Assembly: GCA_046538485.1 (NCBI GenBank)
Contig: JBKHIT010000104.1
Location: 1 to 10,274, forward strand
Reading direction: 5' to 3'
DNA: 10,274 nucleotides
Source: Candidatus Brocadiia bacterium
Lineage (GTDB): Bacteria; Planctomycetota; Brocadiia; SM23-32
The first letter of the stretch is position 1. Every line of letters begins with the position of its first letter. The notes below the pieces were generated by a model. The model did no database searches, was not told the origin of the DNA, and worked only from the letters and a program-made list of their open reading frames with translations. Of this stretch, positions 1-10,274 are shown one piece after another. The position numbers were made by a program, and so were the translations under genes.

Positions 1-46
1 AACCAGAAAGCTGGTTGCAAGGCCACGCACTTTACCGAATAGTTAC
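1..46. mobile_element. Putative insertion-sequence terminus (IS66-like GTAAC end) truncating the nuclease-like gene; the element would extend beyond the window
   Basis: The minus strand reads GTAACTATTCGG from position 46 to 35. IS66-family ends begin with GTAA, and this GTAA supplies the premature TAA of ORF 43..315. Confidence 0.4.
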
Positions 47-315
47 ATAGCGCGGTAGGTTTCTTTGCGGCCCAGATTTATGCTGTGTTTAGCTTGGACG
101 TAGATATTGCCGTCTTCAGAAGTGCGGATGAGAAGATCATCTACCGGATGTTCTGTTTCGCAGCGCAGAGACTCCAAGGTCGTGGATGCTCTTAGATCCC
201 AAGGGATAGAGACAGACTCCTCAGCCAAAATATGGACGGCAGCCCACGCAGCTATCCGATTCTGAAAAAGTATGCCTGTTTGCGTTGCCGCACCACCTGC
301 TGAAGAAGGACACAT
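43..315 (-). pseudogene. Truncated 5' stub of a PD-(D/E)xK nuclease-like protein, of the kind found at the N-terminus of STAND/AVAST-type or Cap4-like defence proteins
   Basis: AGGAG 6 nt before the ATG. The sequence GGAATQTGILFQNRIAAW...RCETEHPVDDLLI...YVQAKH fits the GxxYQ...E...DD...QxK pattern. The ORF stops about 14 aa after QAK, too short for a complete domain, and neither other frame offers an obvious continuation. Confidence 0.65.
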
Positions 316-345: not shown

Positions 346-2121
346 CTATTCCACAAGCGGCTCCAGGGCATGCGGTTGATTCAAGACATGCTCGATGAGA
401 TCAACTGATGCGGCGGCAGCGAACTCTTGATGATCGTCCGTTTTTGAGCCGTCTCCCCAATCGCAAATGCTTTTGGCGACAATCCATTCGCAACCCTTTC
501 TCTCCGCAGCCGCAGCCATTCCGGCTCCTTCCATTTCACCGCCGATCGCATTGGGGAATCTTCTAAAAATGTCTTGTTTGAACTCAAGGTTATCGATCAG
601 CTTTTCACCCGATAGTATTGGTCCAACCTGATAGCTGCATTCCCTGCCATCAGGCGCTTGGAACCTCCAGCCAACCACATTGCGGAAACGATCAAGGATT
701 ACTGGCCCCGCCATGTGCTGAGCACCTCGATTCTCACTCGACGAGGTTCCAATACGTTCCGGTTCATACGCGATTATTCGCTCTGAAACGAGAACACTTC
801 CAATGTCCTGTTTCTCCGCGTCTTTCCCCATGGCAATCCCTGCCATGATTACGAGGGCAAGGTCCCACGCATCGATCATCTCTCCCGTTACAGTCAAAGA
901 GGCATCCCGACCTGTAGAACCCATTGCTGACATACAGAGTACAACATCCGTTACACCAATACGCCCCAAGAAATAGGTGTTACTGTTATGGGGCACCTTC
1001 AGCACCCTTTCCTTCCCCTTCAGAGGATGCATTTTCCTCAGTACCGCTTTTCTTTCGGTCTCAGTGGCAACCATAATCCCGACTGAGGGATGAGAAATCT
1101 CGCCGGCCTCATCGTATGAAGTCGACTGTATTGCAGGGATCTCAAGATTGTTCCATTGCTCTCCCGAATAATCGACCGGTGACGATTGGGAAGCCGGTTC
1201 ATTAGTAGAGGATTCCAAGGAGAGATCGGAAAGCAACAGCCGAATCGCAAACGCGGATGCCAGATTGACATCCATCGGGGAGTCTTTTGTCCCCAGGACC
1301 GAATAAAATGAGTCAGCGGAAATATTCTCAAGCTCCTCTACAAGCCCTTCCGGGCACCAAGCCTCGCAGTCGGTTAACATTTCCAAAGAAACTTCAACAT
1401 CGCCGTTCCATGCTTTGCGTTCAGCCCGAAGACCAGTTCCTTCTATGTTCTCCCATCCCAACCGGTGAAGTAAAAGTATCCAGTGGTTGGCATTCGGCGT
1501 GGATTCAGCTATTGGGACATCAATGACCACTCCATCTTCATACTGAGCAACTCCAGCCTGCCATCCCTGCGCAATGAATTTTCCAGGGACGTTCGGCACA
1601 TCGCCAAAGACGTACCGCACACCGGCCCGAGGCTGTCGAAATATCTGTGTCAACTGAGGCGCGTATACGTGTTTGTCAAGGTCGTCTGCTCCCGAGAGAG
1701 CTGCGGCGGCCGCATTTGCAAGTGATTGAAATGCCTCTACTTCTTCAGAAGGCTGCCCACAAAAGTAACCAGTACGAAGTTTCATCGGGACACTCACTGC
1801 ACGCACAACTCCAGAACCATCACGGATTACACCTTCTAATTCATCTTCGTCGAAGCATTCGTCCGGTCTCGGTTCTCGGTATCCGGGATTAGTGTTCGGC
1901 AGTGTGCGGACCACCGACCAATCCCACTTACCATACCGTCCTCTCTCTTCGCCTGATGGAATGTCACCGTCCATTCCGTCGAACCAGGTGGGACCACCCA
2001 GCTTGCTCCGCTCTTTGTCCGTCACCTCTACCAGCATGTGGTTCAAGCCACATGATTCTTTAGCACGAGACGAGAACTGCTCTGAGAGTATCTCCAATGT
2101 ATCATGCCAACCTGAGGGCAT
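346..2121 (-). CDS. Fusion of an uncharacterised N-terminal domain and a C-terminal nucleoside phosphorylase (PNP_UDP_1 / MTA-SAH nucleosidase-like) domain; putative defence effector
   Basis: 591 aa with AAGGA about 8 nt upstream of the ATG. The C-terminal ~245 aa (about 346-1090) carry VGIMVATETE, SAMGS, IMAGIAMG, DIGSVLVS, GPILSGEKLID, GGEMEGAG and KSICDWGDGSKTDDHQEFAA. A Ser/Pro/Glu-rich linker precedes this domain. Confidence 0.85.
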   Translation of the reverse strand: MPSGWHDTLEILSEQFSSRAKESCGLNHMLVEVTDKERSKLGGPTWFDGMDGDIPSGEERGRYGKWDWSVVRTLPNTNPGYREPRPDECFDEDELEGVIRDGSGVVRAVSVPMKLRTGYFCGQPSEEVEAFQSLANAAAAALSGADDLDKHVYAPQLTQIFRQPRAGVRYVFGDVPNVPGKFIAQGWQAGVAQYEDGVVIDVPIAESTPNANHWILLLHRLGWENIEGTGLRAERKAWNGDVEVSLEMLTDCEAWCPEGLVEELENISADSFYSVLGTKDSPMDVNLASAFAIRLLLSDLSLESSTNEPASQSSPVDYSGEQWNNLEIPAIQSTSYDEAGEISHPSVGIMVATETERKAVLRKMHPLKGKERVLKVPHNSNTYFLGRIGVTDVVLCMSAMGSTGRDASLTVTGEMIDAWDLALVIMAGIAMGKDAEKQDIGSVLVSERIIAYEPERIGTSSSENRGAQHMAGPVILDRFRNVVGWRFQAPDGRECSYQVGPILSGEKLIDNLEFKQDIFRRFPNAIGGEMEGAGMAAAAERKGCEWIVAKSICDWGDGSKTDDHQEFAAAASVDLIEHVLNQPHALEPLVE

Positions 2122-2129
2122 ACGTAGTT

Positions 2130-2134
2130 TCCTT
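2130..2134 (-). promoter_or_regulatory. Ribosome binding site of the nucleoside phosphorylase-domain gene
   Basis: AAGGA 8 nt upstream of the ATG at 2121. Confidence 0.55.
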
Positions 2135-2219
2135 TTGGGTCGCGAACTAAAGCTCTGTCGTCAATGCTTCAGCTGCAGTTATATTTTTGAATCCTGTGAA
2201 ACATCTGAGGCGGACAATA

Positions 2220-4262
2220 TCACACCCCACCGGTCGCTTTGTGGATGGCTTTTTGGAGGTCACCGTAGAAGACCGGGTCCACGTTCTCCACTATGTCTGC
2301 GCTCACTTCCAGGAAGTTGCGTTTGTTCTCCACCGGGATCAGGGCCTTTTTGGCTCCGTTGTCCATGCCGACCTGCAACGGTTCCACCAGTGATCGGGCG
2401 GGTTTTATGTTGCCCTGCACACTCATGTCGCCAAATACCAGCAGGCCGGGCAAGACCGATTCTTTCTGGAGCACCGAACAGCACGCCACAAAGAACGCCA
2501 CTCCCACCTCCGCCTCCACGTCATTCCCCATCAGATCTATCACCTCCGTGTGGATGTCGGAGCTGTCCAGCTGCTGGCCAAACCCCATGGTGCTTTTGTT
2601 CGAGAGCAGATAACTGAATGCACGTTTGAGCGATTCCTTCGTCGCACCGCTGGCCCCACCCTGGAGCTTGAGCTTGCCCGTGCCCGATGAGGTGTTCACC
2701 TCGATGCGATACAAACTCACGGTTCCGTCCGGACTGACAGAAGCCGTGTACACTGTTCCCGGGGGAAGGGGGTCGGGAGAGATGAGTTCACGACCTCCCT
2801 GCTCGGGGACCCCCACGAACTTCTCCTCGCCCGTCTCGTTCATGATATAACTGAAGGAGGTGTTGTAATACTCGAAACTGCCCATCTTCTTGAGCTGCTC
2901 TTTCACCCGTCGCCGCCCCTCCATCGCCAGCTGCAGTATCTCCTCCAGCTGCTCCTCCGTCACCTCCCCGTGCGGATACATGATCTTCATCAGTCCGGAA
3001 ACCGTACGCCGAACCGCCTTGCGGTCACGGGCGTTCAGGTGGGAGCCCAGGGAGAAGTGGTGGTCGATGATCTCGGTGAAGTTCCGGTTCCTCAGCCCCC
3101 GCATCGCCCCTGCCAGGTAGTCCACCACCAGCCCGTAATGATCGGTGAACAGCTCGTTCCGCATCTTGGGCAGCTCCCAGCCGGGCTGGTAGTAATGCAA
3201 CCGCACGAGGAACGCCATATCGTTCCGGATTACGTCGGGCAGAGGAGCAAACAGGTGACCGGTCTCCACCAGCACGTCAACGGGCTGATTGGTGTTGCCG
3301 AAGAAGGCTATACCCGCGTATCCACTCTCCTGTTCCCGTGCCCTCTGGTACTGGCCCGACTCGCAGTAGGTCTTCAGCGTGGTCACCACCTCCTTGGGCA
3401 TCTTCTGCAGATCCGCCACCTCGTCAAACCCCACCGCGTCCCATATCTGCACCATACCCTTCCGGCTTGAGTTCATGTAACCAAACATGTTGGCCACCGT
3501 TGTGGGGCCCGTCAGAAGAGCCGCATAGGGGCTAATTTCCTGCAACACGTAACTCTTGCCCGTTCCCCGCGGGCCCAGCTCCACGAGATTGAAATTCCGT
3601 TCGCACAGCAAAACCAGTCGGACGAGGAAAAGCAACTTGGTGCGCCGGTCCAGCTGGTCGGGCTCATAGCCTATGCTGCGCACCATCAGGTCAACCCACT
3701 CCTCGCTCGTGAACTCAGCTCTTGTCTTTTCATATTCGTCCGGGTCAAACGTGGCCAGTTGAATGGGATCCAGCTTCTCGATCCAGAAAGGATATTTGCC
3801 CTTGGTGTCCTCGTCATACTCAAACCGCACCTGCATCTGAGCCCAGACACCTCCGGTGAGCAAACGGTCGTATTCCCGCACAAAGTGGTCTGGAATGTGG
3901 AGGTAGCGGTGTCCAAAATTGGCCGCTTCGGCCCAGTATTTCGATTCCGTCAGCCTCACCTTCACTTTATCGATGAAGGTATGTTTCCCCTTCTCCTTGA
4001 CGAGGCTCTGAGCCTTCGGCCCCTCATCCGGATTGATGTAGTTGTCCGCCAGCGTCTCATTGACCACATTCAGCCCCATCTGGATGGCGGATTCGTCGGA
4101 GGAGGCGCAGTATTTGCCCAGAAGGTATTCCAGGACGAAACCGGGCACGTTGGCGCCGACTTTCACTTTCCGCACCAGGTCCTTCCGCACCACCTTGCCG
4201 GCAAATACGTCGTTGACCTTCTCATCAAGAGCGTCTCTATCAGGCACATTGTCCTCGTTCAT
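2220..4262 (-). CDS. brxL: BREX BrxL, AAA+ (MCM-like) ATPase with a C-terminal Lon-protease-like domain
   Basis: N-terminal FAGKVVRKDL...VLEYLLGKYC, Walker A GPRGTGKS, Walker B VGFDEV, PGWELPK, ARDRKAV, and Lon-like C-terminus (GDMSVQGNI, GAKKALIP). ATG at 4262 has GGGGA 7 nt upstream. An alternative TTG at 4268 overlaps the pglZ stop (TTGA). Confidence 0.95.
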   Translation of the reverse strand: MNEDNVPDRDALDEKVNDVFAGKVVRKDLVRKVKVGANVPGFVLEYLLGKYCASSDESAIQMGLNVVNETLADNYINPDEGPKAQSLVKEKGKHTFIDKVKVRLTESKYWAEAANFGHRYLHIPDHFVREYDRLLTGGVWAQMQVRFEYDEDTKGKYPFWIEKLDPIQLATFDPDEYEKTRAEFTSEEWVDLMVRSIGYEPDQLDRRTKLLFLVRLVLLCERNFNLVELGPRGTGKSYVLQEISPYAALLTGPTTVANMFGYMNSSRKGMVQIWDAVGFDEVADLQKMPKEVVTTLKTYCESGQYQRAREQESGYAGIAFFGNTNQPVDVLVETGHLFAPLPDVIRNDMAFLVRLHYYQPGWELPKMRNELFTDHYGLVVDYLAGAMRGLRNRNFTEIIDHHFSLGSHLNARDRKAVRRTVSGLMKIMYPHGEVTEEQLEEILQLAMEGRRRVKEQLKKMGSFEYYNTSFSYIMNETGEEKFVGVPEQGGRELISPDPLPPGTVYTASVSPDGTVSLYRIEVNTSSGTGKLKLQGGASGATKESLKRAFSYLLSNKSTMGFGQQLDSSDIHTEVIDLMGNDVEAEVGVAFFVACCSVLQKESVLPGLLVFGDMSVQGNIKPARSLVEPLQVGMDNGAKKALIPVENKRNFLEVSADIVENVDPVFYGDLQKAIHKATGGV

Positions 4263-4264
4263 CG

Positions 4265-6811
4265 TCAAATCCCCAGTTCCACAGGTATCTCGTCGGATTG
4301 GGCCAGCACCGCATCGCTGTCCGGATCCAGTATCATCACACGCAGGTCATCACATTCCTCCCGCGTCAGCATCAGGGTAACGGTGGCCTGCTGCATCCCC
4401 GGCTCCACCTCCACACACCCCGTGCTGCGGTCATATTCGGCATTGATGGCCATGCCCGCTTCTCCCACCTGTTCCCCATCGGAGGCCAGGATGACCCGAA
4501 GCGACACGCTTTCCCCGGCGAACAAATTCGTTCCAATGGACATCTGAACACTGAATGTGCGGTTCGTGATACGCTCGGGGCATTCGGTCAACGTGACGGG
4601 CGTCTCCTCTCTCGTCTCCCGTTTCTCCGGTATCTGGAACGCAATGACGGGCACAACCATCTCCTGGAGACTGCATCCACCGTGATGATAGCTCAGACCG
4701 CCCTGGGTCCGGAACACGCCCAGACCGGTGGGAAAAATGAAGTCCAGGTCCGAATCATATCCAAGTTCCACCCCGCTCACCCGCACCGCACCGGTGGGCG
4801 TTGATCCACCACGCCCGGCCCAGCACCGGCGGGCCAGCTTCACTATGTCGCCGCCCGGATTGTCGGTTCGCATGTGTTCGCCTTTCCGGCGGGCGAACTG
4901 GTAACCGTGATCGGCCGTGATGACAAATCGTTCAATACCCAGGTCCGCCAGTTTGCGCACGGCCCTGGCCACATTCCCCACCACGGTATCCATCACCTGG
5001 CGGGCCAGCAGCTCACTGCCCATCTCCGCCAGGGCATCGATTTCCTGAGAATGCACCATCACCACCGAGGCACCGTTCATTTTGCGTTTCAGCCGGGACG
5101 GAGGTTTCTGGAGTACGGCATCCAGTTTGAGTTCCGCCGAATCCGGTTCCCGGGCCTTCAGATACTTTATCCGATCCTTTCGGGTGCTCAGCATCGCATC
5201 CTTCAGTCGCACGCCCAGGTCACCTTTCTGTTCGACCACGGAGAAACTGGTGGAAGCCTCGGGCAGTAATGCCGCCATACCAACGGTGGTGACACTTGGC
5301 AGAGAGGCCGCTGCTGGCCGCACGGACAGGCCTTCTACATCCGACAATCGACGCGCCAGCATGACGCCCATCTCATACCGCAGGGCATCGACTGCAAAGT
5401 AGGCGGTGCGCTGATGTTTACCTTCCACCATGTCCTGGTAGATTCGCGTCTGTGGGAGGATAGAGCCGACGTTCCAATCCGCCTCCTGGAGGGATTCGGT
5501 AAAATTCGTGGCCATCTGCTGCAGAATCCGTTCCTGAATATCTCGGACATGGACAAGAGCCTGCTGTGCCTCACACTCTTCGTCCATCGTGGCGATCTGG
5601 CCCTCCAGCATACGGTGGAGCAGATCCACCTCGCACCAGCCGCCGTCACCGTCCGTGTAAGCGTCAATCCACCAGTCCGGTGGCCTTCTCGATCCCGACA
5701 TCTCATCCTCGACCCGGCGTATTTCCGCGGCTAGCTCAGCCATCAAACGGACGCATTCCCACTGCATCTGTCGCTGCACATCATTGCTCACCCAGAAGCT
5801 GCGGGTTTGCCTCTCCACCACATCCCGCACCTCTTCGAGGTTTCCCTCAGCAATACACTGATCACACCATTTCAGAAGCGCCTGCTCTTCAAAGGGGAAC
5901 GTATTTTCCGTCCCGAGTTCAGCCGCCTGGACGACATCAGGGGACAGACCAAGTTCCGATTCCACCCGAGTGGCCATGTCCGCGTACGCACTTTTGAAGT
6001 CCGATCGCAGTCCGGTCACCACTTTTTCGATTCGCCGGCTCTGCTCCTGCAGACTCGCAGCCGGTATCATCCCGAAAGCCTCCGGGTCGTCACCCCTGAA
6101 GTCGGATCGGAAATGATTGACCAGCACGTAGCGCGCACAGCGACTGCGCGCATCGGCAATATTATCATCCTCGTCCATCTTCAACCCGAGGCGCCCCTCC
6201 AGCAGTCGGAACAGTTCGCCGGTGGCGCCTTTCGCCCGTATGTCACCGTCACTGTCCGGATCGGCCAACCAGGCCGTCAGCATCCCCTCGCTGTCCTTGG
6301 CCCCCTCAAAGATGACTTTGAGTATAGAGGGTTTCTCCGTTTCCGCCCCCTGTTTGGCGAAGGCCACCACATCCTCATAGGTCAGGTTATCGGTCTCCAG
6401 CATGTCATCAATATCACCGTCGGTGTAGAACTCGCGCAACGCGAACCGTGCCAGTTGGGGAAGCTGGGGCTGATAACACTCCCCGGCCAGCTCCAGTTCC
6501 ATCAACAACGATTGCTCGCGATCCCGCTTTTCGCCGGGGATATAAATCAAAAGAGGGTCGGGCGCATCCACCTTCACCAGGGGCTCAACGGTGGCCCGGA
6601 CGGCCCAGAAGGATCCATCGTATTCGACCAGATTCGTTTCCACGTCCTGGATCGGGACGGTGGTGATTTCACCATTGCCGGCCTCGCCAGACTCACGCAG
6701 TTGCTTAATAAACGGTGCGAACTCCCCTTTTTCGTCATACCACACGACGACACGACGGTCTCTCAACTTTTGCGTCAGCTGTTGAGCAAGGTATTCTTGA
6801 AACGGGTTCAT
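4265..6811 (-). CDS. pglZ: BREX PglZ/BrxZ, alkaline phosphatase-superfamily protein
   Basis: 848 aa. N-terminal RRVVVWYD. PglZ-domain motifs YFAVDALRYE, LPSVTTVGMAALLP, EIDAL, ITADHG and YHHGGCSLQEMVVP. Directly upstream of brxL. Confidence 0.95.
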   Translation of the reverse strand: MNPFQEYLAQQLTQKLRDRRVVVWYDEKGEFAPFIKQLRESGEAGNGEITTVPIQDVETNLVEYDGSFWAVRATVEPLVKVDAPDPLLIYIPGEKRDREQSLLMELELAGECYQPQLPQLARFALREFYTDGDIDDMLETDNLTYEDVVAFAKQGAETEKPSILKVIFEGAKDSEGMLTAWLADPDSDGDIRAKGATGELFRLLEGRLGLKMDEDDNIADARSRCARYVLVNHFRSDFRGDDPEAFGMIPAASLQEQSRRIEKVVTGLRSDFKSAYADMATRVESELGLSPDVVQAAELGTENTFPFEEQALLKWCDQCIAEGNLEEVRDVVERQTRSFWVSNDVQRQMQWECVRLMAELAAEIRRVEDEMSGSRRPPDWWIDAYTDGDGGWCEVDLLHRMLEGQIATMDEECEAQQALVHVRDIQERILQQMATNFTESLQEADWNVGSILPQTRIYQDMVEGKHQRTAYFAVDALRYEMGVMLARRLSDVEGLSVRPAAASLPSVTTVGMAALLPEASTSFSVVEQKGDLGVRLKDAMLSTRKDRIKYLKAREPDSAELKLDAVLQKPPSRLKRKMNGASVVMVHSQEIDALAEMGSELLARQVMDTVVGNVARAVRKLADLGIERFVITADHGYQFARRKGEHMRTDNPGGDIVKLARRCWAGRGGSTPTGAVRVSGVELGYDSDLDFIFPTGLGVFRTQGGLSYHHGGCSLQEMVVPVIAFQIPEKRETREETPVTLTECPERITNRTFSVQMSIGTNLFAGESVSLRVILASDGEQVGEAGMAINAEYDRSTGCVEVEPGMQQATVTLMLTREECDDLRVMILDPDSDAVLAQSDEIPVELGI

Positions 6812-6850
6812 TCAGCTTCGCCCTTTCATATCTTCTCTGACATCTACAGC

Positions 6851-7594
6851 CTACTCGGAAAGCTTTTCAATGCAGTCCACCACGAATTCCAGTAGCAAGA
6901 CAGCACGGAGGGAGATGGCTTCCGAAGCATAATTGTTGTCTATACCATGGAGTATACGATTACGATTGAGCGGACTATCTGTCCTGAAATCTCCATAGAA
7001 TTGCTCGTTTACGAACCTCTTTACAGACGCATAACGCCTTTCGGAAACGGGCGGATAGGTAACAAAGCCTCCGTGCGGATAAAGCACCTTCTCAGCCTCT
7101 TCCCATGGAACGTCGGCCATTCGCAGGGGTTCAGTGATGACCGCATAAAGCCGCTCCTGTAAGATACGCTGGAGTTCAGATTTCGGAGATTGGTCTATCG
7201 CCCCGCCCCGCAATGTCCCTTCCACCTGCGCACACAGTACGGGGACAGAAAGTTCGTAATCCCCAGAGCAATGGGCATCCAGCGCCTTCTGGACTATGAT
7301 AATTCGATTTTCCAGACATTCTGCTTTGCCAAAACGAGGAATCACTTTCTCCCTGACATAGTCGGCATCGTAGCTATACACCATCGTATCGCTGATGATC
7401 GCGTCCACATTATTCTGTTCTTGGTCGAGAATAAATTCCACCAAATCCGCACATACTGAAAGGGGGAGGTTAGTGTCGGGCACCCATTCCGCACCAAGCA
7501 TAGTGTCACAGTACACCTGAATATTGTCTTCGACGTAAGATATCTCCTCAGCAAACTTTTTCATTGACTTCTCTGTTTTCTCGCATACCTGCAC
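6851..7594 (-). CDS. Hypothetical protein with a C-terminal HEPN-like motif (LNRNRILHG); putative toxin or abortive-infection RNase inserted between pglX and pglZ
   Basis: 247-aa ORF with a GTG start and GAGGAG 7 nt upstream (7602-7607). R-x4-H motif at 6947-6964, preceded by a helical YELSVPVLCAQVEG segment. Fills the gap between pglX and pglZ on the same strand. Confidence 0.7.
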   Translation of the reverse strand: MQVCEKTEKSMKKFAEEISYVEDNIQVYCDTMLGAEWVPDTNLPLSVCADLVEFILDQEQNNVDAIISDTMVYSYDADYVREKVIPRFGKAECLENRIIIVQKALDAHCSGDYELSVPVLCAQVEGTLRGGAIDQSPKSELQRILQERLYAVITEPLRMADVPWEEAEKVLYPHGGFVTYPPVSERRYASVKRFVNEQFYGDFRTDSPLNRNRILHGIDNNYASEAISLRAVLLLEFVVDCIEKLSE

Positions 7595-7641: not shown

Positions 7642-10227
7642 CTATACCGCCGGCGCCGACAGCAGATCCTCCAGGGCCGCTTTGACGGCGGTGGAGGTAC
7701 GTTCGTCGATGAGTTCGTTGATCTTTTCATCCGATACGTCACGGGGTTCCCAGTCGCCATCCTCGGTTTCCTCCCAGAAGACCTCCTCCAGGTCGTGGGC
7801 GATGGCGAGGTCGCGTCGATCGGCGCATTTTGGGACCACCCGTTCGGGCCAGAGGTGCATGGCCAGGTGGGCCCAGTCGTATTCTCCATCCACCAGCTTG
7901 CCCCACGTCTTCTTGCACCGTTTCTGCCACTTGCGGGGGGCGACCAGGCGCCAGAGGGGCGCGTAGTTGATGATGACACCATCGTTGAGGTTCGGGTTCC
8001 ACAGCGGCGCGACCCGGGCGACCTCATCCCGGAACTGGCGCAGTTCTTCCACAAACTCCTCCTGTTCCTCAACCTCCTTGCGCTCCCTGGATGAGGCATC
8101 CGAACCGAGAGCGCTGCGCATCTCGTTAAGTCGCCGTTCCTCATGCTGGAGTTTGGGCTCCACGTAGTCGTTCTGCACCTTGTACATCGTGTCACGGGTG
8201 AACCGATGATAGTAGAGCCAGACCGCATAACTGACGCTGGGGGTGGCGAGCTGCCAGTAGATGGGAGCATTACGGCGGCTCTTGGAGTATCGTTTTACAT
8301 GTTGAAGGAAGAAGCCGGTGTTCCCCTTTTTGCGGAAGTAATTGCGGAGGCTGTCGGCACCCTCGTCAATGATCTCGATCGCCTCACGGTACCTTTTGTC
8401 CCCATTTACTTCGCCCCACAATGTTCGGAAGACCTCTTGGATTCTCCGGAGTATGTCCTGCGGATGCCCCGGATCATCAACCAACACGCCTCCGGCCGCA
8501 ATCTTCACGGGATATTCTTGTAGCGGTTCGCTTTGTTCACTGAATTGAAGTTCAGCTGGAGCAACCGATGGGACAGGCGTGAAGGGGTCGTAATTATCTG
8601 CCACCTTTGGCGCTTCCCCCAAAGCAATTCTGATATCCCATCGGCCAAAGCCAACCCCTGCGGCGTAGCTGATTAGCTCCGAAATCCACTGCTCTACCTC
8701 CTGAGGATCAAGAACATCCATTTCACGACGTGCTTCAATTATCGTCTTGGGGTGGGCTCCAAACCTATAGCAAAGTAATTCCAACTTCCTGTCCGCGAAA
8801 AAGCTTTTTTTTGTCACTGCACGGCTACCACCAGAGTCGTTCACTTCCAGCTCTATTATGTCTCTAACCGGTTCTTCATATAGCTTAGCAAGCTCATTCA
8901 TCTCTTCAGGGGCGAGTGGTTTTTCAGGGAACATCCAAGGATGTTTGCCCATTTCTTGCTGAATGCTACTGATCGTCGACTCATTCAGTCCATACAGATC
9001 TTGCACCTTGCGCTCAATGGTCCCGGTCAGAGCAAGGATGGAAAGAGCACGGGTTTCAGACTGGTGCTTAGCGTCCTGGGCGAGGTCTATTAGCGAGCCC
9101 CCTGTCGATTCCCTATCTGCCTTCAGGATAATAGGCATCATATAACATTTTGACGTCTCCCTTTCAGTATCCTGCGCACGAAATTCTCGCCATACTTCTC
9201 TTACGATCGGGCCAATGTCCTTGCCTTTGTCTGAAAGCTCAGGGGGTAAGGGTATGCTTTGAACCACGCCCACTTCGTAGCTTCGAGCTGCACTTCCAGA
9301 GACTGCAGCGTCACCAGAGGCAACAAGCAACTCAATCATGTAAGCAACCGTTCGTGACATAAGAACACCGAGCAACGGCAAACTGTTCTTGGGATTCTCG
9401 CATATGACTGCATCCCCAGAATGGCTAAATATACAGCCCGGTGGTAACACGCGGGGGCTGAATCCACTCGCAGTTCGAACGCTCCAAGTGATTGCGGGAA
9501 GGAAGTAATACTCTGTGTTTTGAGGGCGGGAGCGAAGACGCCCAGAGTTTGGGCGAACGAAGTTTTTGATCTCCAAGCCATCATCTTCCCATCTCACACT
9601 CAAGTGGATATCCGCATAGTAAGGGGAATACTCGCCGCCTTTTGCGAGTGGCACCCAGGTCTTTCGTTGAACGGTTCGCCTTCGACAGCATTGTTGGAAA
9701 TCACCATTACTTGTCTTCCAGGCTGTGGCTTCTTCAGATCCTAGTAGATACTGAGGGGGAATTTCCCAGATAAGTCGAAGGAACCTATAATCGTCTGCTG
9801 TGACCAACCCCTGCTTGACCGAAGCTGACTCACCTTCAAGGCGAGGGTATGCGGCGAAAGCTTTCCTGATGTCATGCCCGGCCCAGTATGAAAATCTGGC
9901 TTCTGGCATCTTCATGAATGCGCGATCCATAACGACAAAAGCATGCTGCCGGCTTTTCGTCGGAGCGCTTATCGAATGAAGAAGCCCTGCTCTCTTATCC
10001 CTCGCCGCAAGAACACGGAAAAAATGACTAGGTATGCTTTCGTTTCGAGGTTTCCGTAGAATGCAGGTTGCCGCCTCAACTAACGCTCCGTCCAGCACCC
10101 CATGGCCAAGGTCAGCGGCTGAATCAAAAGAACACTGGTCAAGATGGATATTCCGCCGCCACTGGCTCAAGGTCGATTTGAAGAACTGTGTTCTGTTTAT
10201 GATGGCGCCGAGAAAACCATCGTCTAG
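7642..10227 (-). pseudogene. pglX: BREX PglX/BrxX adenine methyltransferase, 3' fragment (end of the MTase domain, target recognition domain and conserved C-terminus); 5' part missing or separated
   Basis: The 842-aa track ORF (7642..10170) extends upstream in frame as LDDGFLGAIINRTQFFKSTLSQWRRNI, which resembles PglX. It also has DLGHGVLDGALVEAA, VKQGLVTADDYRFLRL, WVPLAKGGEYSPYYADIHLSVRW, and the C-terminal motifs YSKSRRNAPIYWQL, WNPNLNDGVIINYAPLWRL and GEYDWAHLAMHLWPERV. No NPPY/F catalytic motif is in the window. In-frame TAA at 10258-10260. Lies upstream of pglZ and brxL. Confidence 0.85.
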
Positions 10228-10274
10228 CCTCGATTTTACGGCTATTGGCGCACAGAGTTAAATCCAGCCGCAAT
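10228..10274. mobile_element. Putative insertion-sequence terminus (IS1380-like inverted repeat) interrupting pglX; the element would extend beyond the window
   Basis: CCTCGATTTTACG at 10228-10240 resembles the ISEcp1 terminus CCTAGATTCTACG as recalled from memory. It abuts CTAG (10224-10227) exactly where PglX-like sequence ends. The PglX frame has a stop within this segment. Confidence 0.45.

Follow-up and report, generated by a model that had tools for sequence, protein, structure and literature searches.

The window analysed here is an entire contig of 10,274 bp (C106) from a Candidatus Brocadiia genome (G000; 5.19 Mb in 143 contigs, 88% complete). Directly downstream of brxL it carries a gene, here called X-PNP, whose product (P0001) joins a C-terminal nucleoside phosphorylase-like (PNP) domain to a long N-terminal region (domain X), and the locus raises the question of whether this gene is an accessory of the adjacent BREX system, a metabolic enzyme, or a defense gene in its own right. 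The answer reached is that X-PNP is probably a single-gene sensor-effector with a new sensor domain, a function predicted by comparison with its relatives. Fusions of a sensor to a PNP killing module are already known, whereas domain X as a sensor is not, and if X detects phage infection it would be a new recognition module for bacterial immunity; X-PNP would then be a single-gene system, defined and testable, from Planctomycetota. The gene and its parts are as follows:

346–2121, minus strand: X-PNP gene, intact open reading frame (ORF) of 591 aa with an ATG start
1222–2121, minus strand: domain X (residues 1–300), alpha/beta, proposed sensor or regulatory module
1084–1221, minus strand: linker (residues 301–346), mostly low confidence, sequence-variable
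394–1083, minus strand: PNP_UDP_1 domain (residues 347–576), putative immune-clade nucleosidase-type effector (Pfam, PADLOC, fold, tree)
1054–1056, minus strand: codon for E356 (ATETE), candidate catalytic glutamate, invariant
529–537, minus strand: codons for E529-M530-E531 (GGEMEG), aligned with the 'EME' of methylthioadenosine nucleosidase (MTAN), nearly invariant
460–462, minus strand: codon for D554 (KSICDWGD), candidate catalytic aspartate, aligned with the SD of MTAN

Identity of the PNP domain

The C-terminal domain matches PNP_UDP_1 (PF01048) over residues 347–576 (Pfam, E 1.6e-14) and contains the motifs ATETE (352–356), GGEMEG (527–532) and KSICDWGD (550–557), as had been recognized in an earlier reading made from the letters and their translations (the sequence-only reading). 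Full-length X-PNP homologs are 585–600 aa long with 44–62% identity, and the motifs are conserved in the 22 that were aligned: E356 is invariant (22/22), and 90% or more of the homologs retain E531 and D554, the exceptions being two truncated rows. GGEMEG and KSICD align with the MTAN EME and catalytic SD (S. aureus MTAN 'VRAVSDLANGE'), and we take E356 to be equivalent to MTAN Glu12; the titles of Protein Data Bank (PDB) entries among the fold matches mention Glu12Gln and Asp197Asn mutants. D554 would be the counterpart of the aspartate that was mutated in Cap17 and, as D353A, in DtcC.

The top NCBIfam match is the housekeeping nucleosidase MtnN (NF004079; 8.6e-18), with 64.7 bits where the cut-off is 169 bits, and the solved structures matched by sequence and by fold are all MTANs or futalosine hydrolases (~20% identity, TMt ~0.8). 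PADLOC matches are confined to the PNP part and comprise 'Effector PN-superfamily' (4e-14) and the candidate PDC-M60C.

These matches bring in the explanation that X-PNP is a regulated housekeeping nucleosidase, a salvage enzyme of the methylthioadenosine/S-adenosylhomocysteine type with an extra regulatory domain. It is consistent with MTAN heading the NCBIfam and PDB results, with the mostly metabolic neighbors of the homologs (described below), and with the composition of the genome, where MtnN finds no match at E≤1e-20 and PF01048 is present in just one further protein. However, MtnN is also missing from most of the phylum sample (a match in 4/61 genomes), X-PNP occurs in ~1% or less of related genomes, the score lies below the family cut-off, the PNP domain stands apart from MtnN in both trees, and X is fused elsewhere to TIR, Mrr nuclease, kinase and membrane modules. 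A housekeeping role is quite improbable, and the comparison supports a defense-type PNP domain rather than a housekeeping MtnN.

Relationship to immune-type PNP domains

A metagenome scan with two motifs from the PNP domain of X-PNP itself yielded 76 loci, of which nine are full-length relatives and the rest are PNP domains 30–48% identical, located inside other proteins. Extra Pfam-recognized domains are present in 25 of the 46 related ORFs scanned, and the other 21 have unassigned extensions only. The partners are TIR (3), TIR with Metallophos (3), TPR (6), EAD1/EAD8 (3), COR (1), WD40 with Roc and TIR (1), HEAT (1), receiver (1), RVT_1 (2), NB-ARC with TPR (1), NNH6 with WD40 (1), WD40 (1) and pYEATS (1). 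Against a profile of the family PNP domain, 47 PNP domains score 120–315 bits, namely L003 and the metagenome ORFs (45 of the 46, with L077, the remaining one, at 121 bits); a PADLOC Cap17-type hit (L082), found in a same-phylum genome, scores 104 bits and a true MtnN 35 bits.

The careful maximum-likelihood tree has 58 rows; it omits six near-duplicates, eight family rows and the other PNP of the genome, which has a branch length of 10 and is misplaced in a quick 73-row tree. The X-PNP family forms a 99/99 clade (stem 0.49) nested within a 100/98 clade of 53 immune-type fusion PNPs (stem 2.26), with the NB-ARC, NNH6 and WD40 relatives as its closest sister group (94/97). Receiver+PNP (L047), reverse transcriptase (RT)+PNP and NB-ARC+TPR+PNP proxies lie in the same 100/98 clade. 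Three MtnN-type rows, the only usable outgroups, separate at 96/84, so that the comparison with housekeeping MtnN proposed in the sequence-only reading comes out on the side of a distinct domain; the quick tree is concordant.

Passages of Rousset et al. (bioRxiv 10.1101/2023.01.24.525353) describe a Cap17 clade of 1,038 genes with CBASS, Avs, pAgo, DRT8, Detocs and TPR partners. The tree and the fusions seen here resemble that description at the level of sequence and architecture. The novelty lies in the putative sensor domain, the predicted effector being one more member of a clade already known.

Two groups of related PNP proteins have elaborate architectures of their own. L019, L020 and L021 are ~775-aa proteins in which TIR and a calcineurin-type phosphoesterase accompany a C-terminal PNP that is close kin to that of X-PNP, which puts three nucleotide-processing modules on one chain. 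L057 (861 aa) and L059 (919 aa) have a reverse transcriptase and a C-terminal PNP and, with L060, form their own 100/98 clade; they resemble the DRT8 variant mentioned in passages of Rousset et al. (bioRxiv 10.1101/2023.01.24.525353).

Domain X and its effector partners

Residues 1–335 of P0001 have no match in Pfam, NCBIfam, PADLOC or PHROGs, which agrees with the earlier statement that ~300 aa at the N-terminus could not be assigned. Domain X is strongly conserved, with dozens of invariant positions across 22 full-length relatives, and it is rare: searched exhaustively with phmmer, 1.84 billion representatives yield 73 proteins (clusters) at E≤1e-3, of which 47 reach ≤1e-10 and 21 reach ≤1e-30. 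Modeled alone from 43 aligned sequences it has a pLDDT of 87.7 and a pTM of 0.85, and the linker that follows falls below pLDDT 50 (residues 300–313 in one model, 305–318 in the X-alone model) in poorly conserved columns. The model of X has no structural match in the PDB (Foldseek, best E 0.16) or in the viral BFVD (best E 0.039, TM 0.08), and the X alignment finds no relative among viral contigs, giving no sign of a viral origin. An internal duplication within X was considered and rejected (hhalign of the N-half against the C-half, probability only 0.6%). A two-copy complex prediction for X gave no answer (score 0.00, controls not run) and is no evidence either way on self-association.

The partners of X were surveyed in 41 X-domain relatives scanned against Pfam, together with PADLOC and hydrophobicity checks. 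X with a C-terminal PNP is found in the main family and in P0092, P0093, P0099 and P0101. TIR is located on the N-terminal side of X in P0089, P0090 and P0097 and on its C-terminal side in P0106, P0107 and P0140, and a single protein (P0061) has the arrangement TIR+X+PNP. Others contain an Mrr-type restriction nuclease (Mrr_cat; P0111, P0118, P0131), Pkinase (P0096, P0136), PADLOC candidate PDC-S54's C-terminal domain (P0110, 8e-67), a PDC-M58A-like domain (P0091, 1.9e-7), or 2–5 hydrophobic segments predicted with a simple Kyte-Doolittle window (P0120, P0123, P0124, P0128, P0132, P0133, P0135). Weak hints, below threshold, point to HNH (P0122) and to an alpha/beta hydrolase (P0139).

One unchanging domain coupled, on either side, to exchangeable cell-killing modules is a signature of an immune sensor or adaptor, and the comparison supports X as a putative sensor module that swaps effectors. 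The effectors are found on both sides of X, and activation is therefore argued to be independent of a fixed geometry; X may act by induced proximity or oligomerization. The sequence-only reading had suggested an undescribed sensor-effector fusion, and the architecture indeed matches no PADLOC, Pfam or NCBIfam system. A broader proposal, to which we give a little under an even chance, is that X is a pattern-recognition or ligand-sensing domain of a fold unmatched in the PDB and BFVD searches and defines an undescribed single-gene anti-phage family centered on Planctomycetota, with at least six killing modules (PNP, TIR, Mrr nuclease, kinase, membrane-spanning and PDC-S54-type).

The same modules (PNP, TIR, Mrr, kinase and membrane-spanning) also serve in toxins, and ParE and HipA-like toxin genes are located near some homologs, so that X-PNP could alternatively be the toxin of a toxin-antitoxin or inter-bacterial conflict system in which X is a delivery or neutralization-binding domain. 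This is improbable: there is no conserved small neighboring gene as a candidate antitoxin or immunity protein, P0001 has no predicted membrane or secretion segment, and the effector is found on either side of X, unlike in C-terminal polymorphic toxins.

P0086 (353 aa, on a 131,558-bp contig) consists of X alone and stops soon after the linker, the contig end not being the cause. It may be a sensor that stands alone, its effector being encoded elsewhere, or else a copy that has decayed.

Distribution of X-PNP

X-PNP is rare and patchily spread. Names among the homologs include planctomycete metagenome-assembled genomes (Pirellulales, Isosphaeraceae and Gemmataceae) and one Atribacteria record. 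With the whole protein as query, a full-length copy is present in one of 401 genomes of the phylum sample, that of the window itself; with the N-terminal domain as query, a same-phylum sample centered on G401 likewise has one in 401, G401 itself. Within one order, five of 401 genomes have full-length X-PNP. A scan of genome contigs with a single-protein query finds one locus, and an alignment query would reach further.

There is no conserved partner gene in 12 loci (the window and 11 other homolog loci) in an all-against-all BLAST of the neighbors, matches being confined to the near-identical loci L007 and L008, two ParE-like genes and two generic kinases.

Relationship to the BREX locus

Every long ORF of the window is on the minus strand, and X-PNP is located between BREX genes and the remnant of another candidate defense gene. 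The other features are:

7642–10170, minus strand: pglX, C-terminal part (Pfam, PADLOC, NCBIfam)
6851–7594, minus strand: 247-aa ORF between pglX and pglZ, no family assignment
4265–6811, minus strand: pglZ (Pfam, PADLOC, NCBIfam)
2220–4268, minus strand: brxL, context only (Pfam BrxL_N, BrxL_ATPase and Lon_C; PADLOC BrxL 2.2e-275)
2122–2219, minus strand: 98-nt spacer separating the X-PNP start from the brxL stop, containing a ribosome-binding site
43–315, minus strand: 90-aa ORF, remnant of the N-terminus of the PADLOC candidate PDC-M54A, context only (PADLOC 8.9e-30)
1–47, strand not assigned: multi-copy repeat at the contig end (depth; other contig ends)

The assignment of brxL and the BREX locus in the sequence-only reading is confirmed by Pfam, PADLOC and NCBIfam, and its coordinates for X-PNP, the 98-nt spacer and the shared strand are all correct. 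An AAGGA-type ribosome-binding site is positioned 8–9 nt upstream of the X-PNP ATG, and a simple consensus-match scan of the gap (2122–2219) finds no terminator on the minus strand, as had been reported. In a second sample from the same study, a 531-nt contig spans 1755–2285 across the brxL/X-PNP junction with 0 differences, and the adjacency is therefore not an artifact of a single assembly. In another sample of that study (run X4), a 714-nt contig over 1007–1720 has 33 differences and ~95% identity to X-PNP; that habitat is therefore shared by related strains whose copy has diverged.

This arrangement is what would be expected of a BREX accessory or guard, co-transcribed with brxL and firing when BREX is inhibited or overwhelmed, and X-PNP may possibly be transcribed from a BREX promoter. 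However, none of the 11 homolog loci contains a BREX gene, and none of 16 other BrxL loci in a 300-genome phylum sample has X-PNP within 1.5 kb, nor does any of those 16 genomes have a full-length X-PNP match in the phylum scan; the closest of the 16 BrxL proteins have 74%, 73% and 59% identity. The GC content at third codon positions of X-PNP is 0.507, compared with 0.763 for brxL and 0.688 for pglZ (genome GC 0.538). BREX type 1 components are conserved within BREX loci, and X-PNP is not. BrxU and BrxR are genes embedded in or appended to BREX loci, which X-PNP resembles in lying directly after brxL on the same strand, but it differs in having no conservation with BREX at the other loci examined. 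The suggestion that X-PNP acts when BREX is inhibited is not borne out by these loci and codon compositions. A guard role is very unlikely and functional coupling of any kind unlikely, and the case cautions against equating BREX adjacency with functional coupling.

The condition of the BREX locus also argues against a guard. It is of type 1, otherwise complete, and split across contigs, with BrxA, BrxB, BrxC and the N-terminal half of PglX on contig C68 and the C-terminal half of PglX, PglZ and BrxL in the window. The break in pglX falls precisely between profile positions 555 and 556, where the two contigs end. Those ends (~52 nt each; window 10223–10274 and L096 (C68) 14694–14746) recur at other contig ends, that of the window at eight and that of C68 at five, and the first 22 nt of both, read inward, agree at 18 positions, like insertion-sequence terminal inverted repeats. 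It appears that pglX is interrupted by a multi-copy mobile element in the assembled population, and because of this BREX may be inactive.

Upstream of brxA on C68 (L096) are a 157-aa PD-Lambda-3_A-like ORF (3409–3882; 3.3e-18) and a 421-aa protein with several helix-turn-helix (HTH) modules (5740–7005; RmrA, HTH_VI and CapH-type matches). The two enlarge the defense island and could include a regulator.

Comparison with known systems

X-PNP resembles several described systems without sharing the components that define them. Cap17 of type III CBASS, as presented in passages of Rousset et al. 2023, likewise has two domains, a sensing part at the N-terminus and, at the C-terminus, a PF01048 domain of the defense-associated kind with the catalytic Asp and Glu kept, but its sensor is the cyclic-oligonucleotide binder PF18178 and it needs a CD-NTase operon; X-PNP has no PF18178 match at E≤0.01, no cyclase is found on the contig with Pfam or PADLOC, and the PADLOC Cap17-type model covers just residues 500–573. 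DtcC of Detocs also has a C-terminal PNP effector, and the receiver+PNP relative belongs to the same 53-row clade, but X-PNP has no Response_reg match and no neighboring DtcA kinase or DtcB buffer. The PNP-bearing Avs/NLR-like (STAND) proteins combine sensor and PNP effector in one polypeptide, and the NB-ARC+TPR and NNH6+WD40 relatives are the nearest; X-PNP differs from them in having no NTPase module, a C-terminal rather than N-terminal PNP, a length of 591 aa rather than ~1000 or more, and X as its putative sensor. MtnN has the same fold and the same catalytic motif positions but is separated by its low identity, its bit score and its clade, and X-PNP is fused to X and rare. The likeness to PDC-M60C (residues 412–581, 8.8e-14) concerns the PNP part only, and components A and B of that candidate are not matched on the 10-kb contig in general scans, no dedicated search beside X-PNP having been made. 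A word-matching literature search found no paper on the X-PNP architecture or on a BREX-tied PNP gene, with the proviso that Table S4 of Rousset et al. might list members; the search was not aimed at Planctomycetota, and no paper on planctomycete phage defense surfaced.

Predicted mechanism

Taken together, it is moderately probable that X-PNP is a self-contained, single-polypeptide immune sensor-effector whose PNP domain, by analogy with its clade, would act on ATP/dATP, independently of BREX. Domain X (residues ~1–300) would keep the protein inactive and detect an infection cue, which could be a protein, a nucleic acid or a small molecule and which would switch the enzyme on. The activated PNP domain would then cut the N-glycosidic bond of an abundant adenine nucleotide, ATP/dATP being the substrate suggested by the clade, and the loss of adenine would collapse the energy and nucleotide pools, such that the phage is starved, the cell is arrested or killed, and the infection aborts. 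The gene would do so from within a defense island (BREX type 1 upstream and the PDC-M54A-like remnant downstream) while acting independently of BREX.

The PNP chemistry could be a different one within the same immune architecture, with base release making a signal, or with an NAD-derived or GTP-type substrate in place of ATP depletion. Passages of Kaur et al. 2020 (PMC7159879) propose second-messenger generation by base release for the PNPase-superfamily domains that multicellular bacteria, planctomycetes among them, carry in conflict systems. The X-PNP family is a distinct sub-clade on its own stem (0.49), and the TIR+X+PNP protein suggests that two nucleotide-processing activities have been combined. 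However, X-PNP loci have no conserved downstream receptor or partner gene, and every member assayed across the wider clade, the eukaryotic NLRN and DDAN among them, had ATP/dATP nucleosidase activity according to passages of Rousset et al. (bioRxiv 10.1101/2023.01.24.525353). A different chemistry is unlikely.

Several observations weigh against a self-contained immune sensor-effector. MTAN is still the best curated-family match of X-PNP. The related PNP loci are its nearest kin by construction, because they were retrieved with the PNP motifs of the family itself. Membership of the immune clade rests on proxies defined by architecture, because the tree contains no authentic Cap17 or DtcC, and L082, the sole PADLOC Cap17-type sequence, lies just outside the 53-row clade. 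Most of the 11 homolog loci lie among genes for housekeeping or metabolism (IleRS, AlaRS, BipA, DapB, arginine decarboxylase, oxidoreductases and methyltransferases), and a defense- or toxin-like neighbor is found at only 4–5 of the 11 (a PDC-S60 fragment, HipA-like PDC-M03A, a TIR-type effector and ParE/DUF6998), with no complete known system; the other PADLOC matches nearby are generic ones to kinases, methyltransferases and HTH proteins. The homologs are thus mostly outside recognizable defense islands, a result that the sequence-only reading had named as speaking against its proposal, and because their neighbors are mostly housekeeping genes the usual guilt-by-association evidence is weak.

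These neighborhoods do not overturn the domain-level evidence, because the sample is small (11 loci are too few for an enrichment test), PADLOC's coverage of planctomycete immunity is poor, and single-gene systems often stand alone. In the window itself X-PNP does have defense-type neighbors, BREX and the PDC-M54A remnant.

Other features of the window

The 247-aa ORF between pglX and pglZ (6851–7594) has a GC content of 0.488, low compared with its neighbors. None of Pfam, NCBIfam and PADLOC matches it, it does not resemble PglX, and its single PHROG match is weak (phrog_28904, E 1.9e-4). Repeats joining it to pglX were looked for and none were found. It may be an embedded accessory gene.

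The 90-aa ORF at 43–315 covers only positions 2–80 of the 1657-position PDC-M54A profile, and a search of the genome did not find the remainder of the gene. Its stop codon (43–45) falls within the repeat at 1–47, which contains a short palindrome and has a depth of 277 versus 25.6. Several contigs terminate in this repeat, and the same 46–55 nt recur at 10 other contig ends of the genome.

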